63,658 nt of DNA from a virus (lineage: Duplodnaviria > Heunggongvirae > Uroviricota > Caudoviricetes), in the IMG/VR virus record IMGVR_UViG_3300031088_000776; one strand, written 5' to 3'. Below, one piece after another: positions 42,905 to 43,029 of the stretch (position 1 is the stretch's first letter; every line of letters begins with the position of its first letter). The notes under the pieces were generated by a model, which was not told the DNA's origin, did not search any database, and was given only the letters and a program-made list of their open reading frames with translations. The translations under genes were made by a program, and so were the position numbers.

Positions 42905-43029
42905 TTAGGGTGTAGTCATACAGTAGACAGCATTTACTGTCAAAACTGTCATTTCGCTGCAAAAGACCACCTAGTTAGACCCGAGACTATAACGGCTAAC
43001 TAGACGCGCTTAGTAGCGCAGTTTTCGCT
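42905..43029 (+). repeat. Dispersed hairpin repeat, copy 4 (loop inverted, right arm altered)
   Basis: Loop AGACCCGAGACTATAACGGCT (42977-42997) is the reverse complement of the copy 2 loop at 19/21 positions. Confidence 0.9.

Follow-up and report, generated by a model that had tools for sequence, protein, structure and literature searches.

A short repeat that lies between the genes of a large phage-like element has, in one of its copies, the loop of its hairpin turned around between the two arms, which raises the question of whether the turned loop is one state of a working DNA switch or the trace of a mutation. The window analysed here, a stretch of 63,658 nt, is part of a 697,643-bp MEGAHIT contig from a phyllosphere metagenome (ENA ERZ27247443, k141_1324127). 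The affected copy, copy 4 (c4), lies near 266.9 kb of this contig, between two genes, and the remaining copies are internal too. Overall, the flip looks like a fixed, old replication slip of a known mutation kind in one redundant copy of the repeat, and its reading as a programmed switch is not supported.

The repeat unit is 125-170 nt long and intergenic. It consists of a 25-nt Box A, a variable spacer of approximately 35 nt, a hairpin whose 14-nt arms enclose a 21-nt loop, and a tail with a small hairpin of its own. Four copies (c1-c4) lie within the window. Eight were found in the approximately 117 kb of the source contig that were read (between 199,053 and 324,176), giving a density of about one copy per 14 kb; six of them are standard, one is flipped (c4) and one is scrambled (c6). 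They are as follows, with positions given in the window unless they carry a prefix:

5073..5245, plus strand: copy 1 (c1), standard orientation, hairpin at 5162-5210
22411..22562, plus strand: copy 2 (c2), standard orientation, hairpin at 22473-22521
33421..33599, minus strand: copy 3 (c3), standard orientation, with the entire element on the minus strand
42901-43041, plus strand: copy 4 (c4), the whole repeat as aligned to the family, hairpin core at 42963-43011
L004:9722-9828: c5, standard
L013:6532-6638: cB, standard
L013:16889-16995: cA, standard loop, polarity to the genes reversed
L018:4186-4305: c6, scrambled, with imperfect arms and a perfect 10-bp palindrome in the loop

In c1-c3, the right arm is the exact complement of the 14-nt left arm, and six paralogues in all have perfect 14-bp arms, with the loop opposite to that of c4. 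The parts of c4, all on the plus strand, are:

42904..42928, plus strand: Box A, 25 nt, the best-conserved block of the repeat, with a single A-to-G change in c4 (from alignments and a motif scan)
42929..42962, plus strand: variable spacer, in which small hairpins are possible (read from the sequence)
42963..42976, plus strand: left arm, 14 nt, identical to the family sequence in the alignment
42977..42997, plus strand: loop, 21 nt, the reverse complement of the family loop
42998..43011, plus strand: right arm, with four substitutions at 43004, 43005, 43007 and 43008
43006..43019, plus strand: mini-hairpin formed by the rewritten arm and the tail, with a perfect 5-bp stem and a 4-nt loop, a terminator-like match in the terminator scan
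43012..43041, plus strand: tail module, its own small hairpin weakened to 4 bp from 6 in the family

Pairwise comparison bore out the claim of the first-pass annotation that the c4 loop is inverted between its arms: 17-19 of its 21 positions agree with the standard loops once it is reverse-complemented, and only 9-10 when it is read forward. The annotation's count of 19 of 21 for the reverse complement of c2 was obtained again, a match that cannot be chance. The loop is 21 nt in all copies compared, c4 included, and the inversion involved neither insertion nor deletion. As Box A and the tail (43012-43029) of c4 keep the family orientation, the turned part is 42977-42997 alone, bounded by the arms.

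The right arm of c4 was also said to have been rewritten into a new perfect mini-hairpin, and this holds as well: the four substitutions are present, and 43006-43019 was independently flagged by the terminator scan. They change GTGGTC to ACGCGC, leave 10 of 14 positions identical to the family and cost four of the 14 arm pairs. What remains of the long stem is the pairing of the first 6 nt of the right arm, or 8 bp with the two closing loop pairs, while the mini-hairpin can be extended by pairing 43004-43005 with 43021-43022, given a bulge at A43020. This version of the arm occurs once in all sequence seen. The predicted folding energy of the c4 region is -20 to -24 kcal/mol (z about -2), whereas standard copies are predicted at -30 to -37 kcal/mol (z -4 to -7).

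Whether the flip is a fixed state was assessed in independent assemblies. Public runs were found with the query 38500-47500, and the Logan contigs of four runs were compared over 42300-43700. An independent k=31 assembly of the source run yielded a 20,853-nt contig that agrees with the window at every position of 42967-43700, so that in the reads the flipped loop is physically joined to the rewritten arm, the tail and the unique right flank. A second strain was recovered through an identical 98-aa protein as a 6386-nt contig from another sample and study (L012). It differs from the window at 43 of 6386 nt (99.33% identity), and in the four-run comparison, where it is the second-run contig, it has 13 differences in 42967-43700 and none in 42967-43181. 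It carries the flipped loop and the rewritten arm exactly as in c4. Thus, both runs have one loop orientation at c4 and no variant contig at the site, as read from assembled contigs (k=31 and k=141), which drop rare variants. The first-pass annotation had named one orientation in all reads and homologous loci, hence a single historical event, as an outcome that would refute its reading, and at the level of contigs this is what the source run and L012 contain.

The same flipped state in two strains that have since diverged indicates that the inversion is fixed and older than the strain split. Contigs from other relatives fall short of the loop (run X3 and L006, which end at the tail, and run X5), leaving L012 as the sole readable orthologue; as its loop is in the same state as c4, the direction of change is taken from the majority of paralogues. 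The c4 arms pair at only 6-8 bp, making it unlikely that the loop would flip back. In addition, across loop, arm and tail, two short source-run unitigs differ from c4 at 9 and 6 positions, where a standard copy would differ at 15 or more; this is in keeping with further copies whose loop is flipped and whose arm is intact. Instead of having occurred once at this locus, the inversion may therefore have happened repeatedly, or have been inherited from a sub-family of flipped copies.

The repeat family to which c4 belongs is abundant. In the source run, depth is about 40 on either side of the repeat and 500-4400 inside it, and the copy number is estimated at roughly 50 per genome. In each of the four runs (three studies, with phyllosphere, dairy and isolate-like samples among them), the repeat is touched by 82-94 contigs, and the depth over 42864-43051 is tens of times that of the flanks. 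The element's k=31 contigs have both ends in the repeat, so their sizes give the spacing between copies, for example 20,853 nt from c4 to c5. Towards the left, one contig of 22.9 kb is free of the repeat. The repeat tail is also present at the orthologous site of a relative whose flanking protein is 72% identical (L006), which shows that the family is old and maintained.

Several copies and fragments depart from the standard arrangement. In c6 (at about 319.9 kb of the source contig, to the right of the window), Box A and the tail are intact and the arms are imperfect; its loop has been replaced by a 20-nt sequence with the perfect palindrome CGCTATAGCG, and no orientation can be assigned. Both c6 and c4 have a T before CTAG in the tail-side arm. 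To the left of the window (about 212.4-214.0 kb of the source contig), two inverted solo tails of ~40 nt each (L013:15440-15500 and L013:17020-17060), without Box A or hairpin, enclose the reversed copy cA together with two genes on the minus strand, one of 68 aa and one for a 353-aa DUF4379 protein; this cassette may be an inverted or inserted module. A 50-nt stretch at 4366-4415 is 90% identical to 22376-22425 in the left flank of c2. It is isolated and ends in the first bases of Box A, and a partial copy of this kind indicates that left repeat modules are exchangeable.

Small hairpins of 3-4 bp could also form between Box A and the main hairpin, at 5140-5160 in c1, 22450-22472 in c2 and 33511-33535 (minus strand) in c3, as well as in c5, cA and cB. 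Their stems differ from copy to copy (ACTG/CAGT, CTGT/ACAG, TGCG/CGCA, TGT/ACA) and sit in slightly shifted registers, so that the ungapped alignment yields no formal covariation for them. Consensus folding of six copies in both orientations recovered the main hairpin and no compensatory pairs. Rfam gave no family at gathering scores for the window and none at E up to 1 for c3, and no tRNA was found in the window. Near and distant searches with the repeat and its neighbouring DNA returned no match in phage, plasmid, IMG/VR or GTDB collections; pattern scans for the hairpin, Box A and the loop returned none in IMG/VR or GTDB contigs. A single pattern match in a metagenome (L001) was judged to be a chance match.

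The position of the repeat relative to genes gives some indication of its role. Three features surround c4:

42445..42780, minus strand: small gene (86 aa in the gene call, 111 aa if the longest ORF is taken), downstream of Box A along the gene strand
43172..43241, minus strand: separate, strong inverted repeat flanked by runs of A and T, immediately beyond the 697-aa gene's stop codon
43240..45333, minus strand: 697-aa gene, its 3' end facing the tail side of c4

The same polarity recurs in the family, with the 3' end of a gene running into the tail side in seven of the eight copies. Along the gene strand, the stop of the gene is followed in turn by the tail hairpin, the 14-bp hairpin, 4-5 T in a row, the spacer and Box A. 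In five of these seven the next gene is on the same strand, and it starts 94-175 nt past Box A in c2, c4, c5 and c6; c3 and cB lie between convergent genes. The exception, cA, has reversed polarity and sits inside the cassette bounded by the inverted solo tails. In the alignment, all copies have TTNACA, 17-18 nt and TATGAC within Box A on the gene strand, with a poor -10-like hexamer that lacks the final T. In c4, the minus strand carries a short T-run in the spacer, after the hairpin in the gene direction, and TTGACA at 42943-42938, 17 nt upstream of a -10-like TATGAC at 42920-42915. A promoter scan did not call the TTNACA/TATGAC pair. The repeat is most likely a composite terminator/promoter-type cassette read on the gene strand, a role that we infer from this arrangement. 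The long conserved loop and the tail hairpin go beyond what a plain terminator explains.

The inverted repeat at 43172-43241 is probably a terminator and would make the c4 hairpin redundant there. No such extra terminator-like hairpin was found near c1 or c3. Six of the 43 differences in L012 fall within 43182-43236, inside this terminator-like repeat, and comparison of L012:6125-6170 with 43172-43241 showed that one of them gives L012 a G-C pair in the stem where the window has G-T. For the 697-aa neighbour protein, a protein-guided search of viral contigs gave no match.

The wider gene content bears on the kind of replicon in which the repeat resides. Genes of the element include those for TrbL/VirB6-like, VirB11-type ATPase and TraG-like proteins, SSB, primase, RNR, rIIB and a sigma-70-type factor, and DUF4379 and HNH genes are numerous in the part that was read. 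A block resembling conjugation or type IV secretion systems extends over L004, L007, L015 and L018 (288-324 kb of the source contig) and 48816-61347 of the window, and encodes two TrbL/VirB6-like proteins (995 and 1705 aa), a VirB11-type ATPase and TraG/VirD4-like, TpcC-like, TadE-like and NikA-like proteins. Beside it are the phage-type genes for lysozyme, rIIB, RNR, primase and the sigma-70-type factor. The genes seen are in keeping with a large mobile replicon that combines phage-like genes with conjugation-like ones, and instead of a plain phage the element may represent a hybrid or a megaplasmid-like replicon.

With respect to the origin of the flip, the first-pass annotation had proposed site-specific recombination or template switching. 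The latter gives the best fit to the data; no recombinase was found in the ~117 kb read. Template switching between short inverted repeats is known to produce spacer inversion as well as arm homogenisation with clusters of substitutions (PMC8604942, PMC5941160), and inversions of 4-50 bp are described in chloroplast hairpins (PMC12371153). The quasi-palindrome model behind such events is credited, in passages of two later papers, to Ripley, who first proposed it for phage T4 (via PMC8604942, PMC5941160). We consider it probable that c4 is a mutated copy, in which a template-switch spacer inversion and an arm rewrite befell one redundant terminator/promoter-type cassette.

The order of events that we infer would begin in the ancestor of both strains, where replication would switch template between two perfect 14-nt arms. 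The nascent strand would pair with the complementary arm of the other template, copy the 21-nt spacer backwards and return, leaving the loop inverted in place. Then either another event of this class or selection for a substitute hairpin would have altered four right-arm bases, giving perfect pairing with the neighbouring tail. This rewrite would have ruined most of the long stem and thereby frozen the orientation. The change would have been tolerated thanks to the terminator-like hairpin that the 697-aa gene has of its own (43172-43241); the weak c4 stem is probably tolerated because this inverted repeat is strong and accompanied by T-runs. No simple path could be written by which a single template-switch event gives both the loop flip and the arm rewrite, and two events are assumed here.

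The arm substitutions themselves are in line with copying from the tail. Those at 43007 and 43008 turn mismatches with the tail into Watson-Crick pairs, and those at 43004 and 43005 pair with the tail only if A43020 is bulged, a one-base skip that makes this a post-hoc register. By a rough estimate, the chance that all four substitutions change to the complementary base is about 1 in 81 per register, a pattern that is suggestive of templated copying. The c6 loop, as a perfect 10-bp palindrome, indicates that the hairpins of this family are prone to this class of mutation.

Template switching within c4 must be weighed against an origin from other copies of the repeat, in which the loop was copied from an opposite-oriented copy by short-patch gene conversion, or c4 descends from a flipped sub-family or arose by modular reshuffling. 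Such an origin is possible, if rather unlikely. Copies occur in both orientations (c3 is reversed), the family is modular, with its solo tails and partial left module, and for the PeSL of T4-like phages recombination between cassettes is known (PMC2839356, PMC4122927). The loop variant of c4, a T at the seventh loop position, is found in other copies of the source run too (loose ends at 42976), and the two short unitigs fit flipped copies with intact arms. A single crossover, however, never gives Box A, flipped loop and tail in this order. Two exchanges would be needed, each within a 14-bp arm, which is mechanistically close to template switching, and there is no second flipped copy among the eight that were fully read. 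An assembly artefact at the palindromic repeat, a possibility raised by the first-pass annotation, can be set aside with near certainty. The repeat is indeed high-copy and breaks k=31 contigs, but its 14-nt arms are shorter than both k values (31 and 141), a k=141 contig covers the entire element, and in each of two runs a single k=31 contig runs from the loop through the rewritten arm and the tail into 650 nt of unique flank. The independent k=31 assembly agreed with the window over all of 42967-43700, and L012 is in the same state.

The most far-reaching proposal, that the loop flips frequently or by programme, through a site-specific recombinase or hairpin processing, as a switch or a flip/flop pair, is very improbable. 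The inverted arms are perfect in standard copies, and the loop is conserved beyond the need of a plain terminator and so may be read by something. Against this, the contigs of two independent samples have one orientation, with no variant contig at c4, and the right arm of the flipped copy is broken (10 of 14). Pfam scans and precomputed gene tables covering ~117 kb of the 697,643-bp contig revealed neither a serine or tyrosine recombinase nor a Y1 transposase. Mobilisation of the REP/RAYT kind was likewise dismissed, there being no Y1 transposase in the part of the genome that was read. The known invertible segments of Hin/Gin/Fim-type invertases are far longer than the 21 bp of c4. The suggestion of a DNA switch is thus not borne out, given the single orientation, the broken arm and the lack of a recombinase in the part read. 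Nor are the flip/flop isomers, or a hairpin-based mechanism of replication or mobility, that the annotation had suggested for the loop, the c4 site being internal rather than at a genome end and its right arm degraded. There is a slim chance that the intact copies (about 50 per genome) flip their loops at measurable frequency and form a changing flip/flop mixture in which orientation is functional, the conserved loop perhaps being read by a protein or as RNA, with c4 locked in the alternative state.

On the template-switch reading of c4, the locus is a clean natural case of a 21-nt spacer inversion combined with a quasi-palindrome correction in an uncultivated, ~700-kb phage-like element. It would mean that the hairpins of this family form during replication and mutate by template switching, and that clustered changes such as those in c4 are neither many independent substitutions nor programmed variation. 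If this were a switch, a giant phage would carry an invertible element of a new, very small kind; the evidence points in the opposite direction. The repeat family is a more promising object than the flip, given its approximately one copy per 14 kb, its gene-strand polarity, its long conserved loop and its occurrence in relatives from several habitats.

Among known systems, the Hin/Gin/Cin, Fim and Bacteroides-type invertons resemble the present repeat in that a segment between inverted repeats is found in two orientations among copies. They differ from c4, which has a 21-bp segment, broken arms and one state per locus in contigs, with no recombinase gene found in the ~117 kb read. Flip/flop hairpins such as parvovirus ITRs and poxvirus telomeres are located at the ends of linear genomes and are resolved by hairpin transfer, whereas c4 and the other copies are internal. 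The PeSL of T4-like phages (PMC2839356, PMC4122927) are closer, as they too are dispersed intergenic stem-loops with a promoter-like box after genes, have intact and degraded versions and are associated with modular shuffling, a feature hinted at here by the DUF4379 cassette between two inverted solo tails. The present repeat has no sequence similarity to them; its order is hairpin then box, its loop is a conserved 21 nt, it has an extra tail hairpin, and its promoter is only putative.

The minute inversions of chloroplast genomes, which are attributed to Kelchner and Wendel 1996 and Kim and Lee 2005 in the part of the review concerned with them (PMC12371153), are likewise found in intergenic hairpins, often terminator-like and after genes, with untouched flanks. 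Plastid loops flip recurrently among close relatives, whereas c4 is in the same state in the one strain pair. Closest is the spacer inversion by template switching described for T4 quasi-palindromes, yeast (PMC8604942) and proteobacteria (PMC5941160). The 21-nt spacer of c4 is long beside the yeast examples, which are 2-5 nt changes in coding sequence (PMC8604942), and c4 differs further in being part of a multi-copy regulatory-type repeat of a giant phage-like element and in that the inverted hairpin's own arm was later degraded. The signature is otherwise the same: an exact reverse-complement spacer with no change in size, between arms of more than 9 bp, and a neighbouring imperfect palindrome made perfect by clustered substitutions. 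Spacer inversion calls for arms of ~10 bp or more (PMC8604942), and the six paralogues with perfect 14-bp arms have them.
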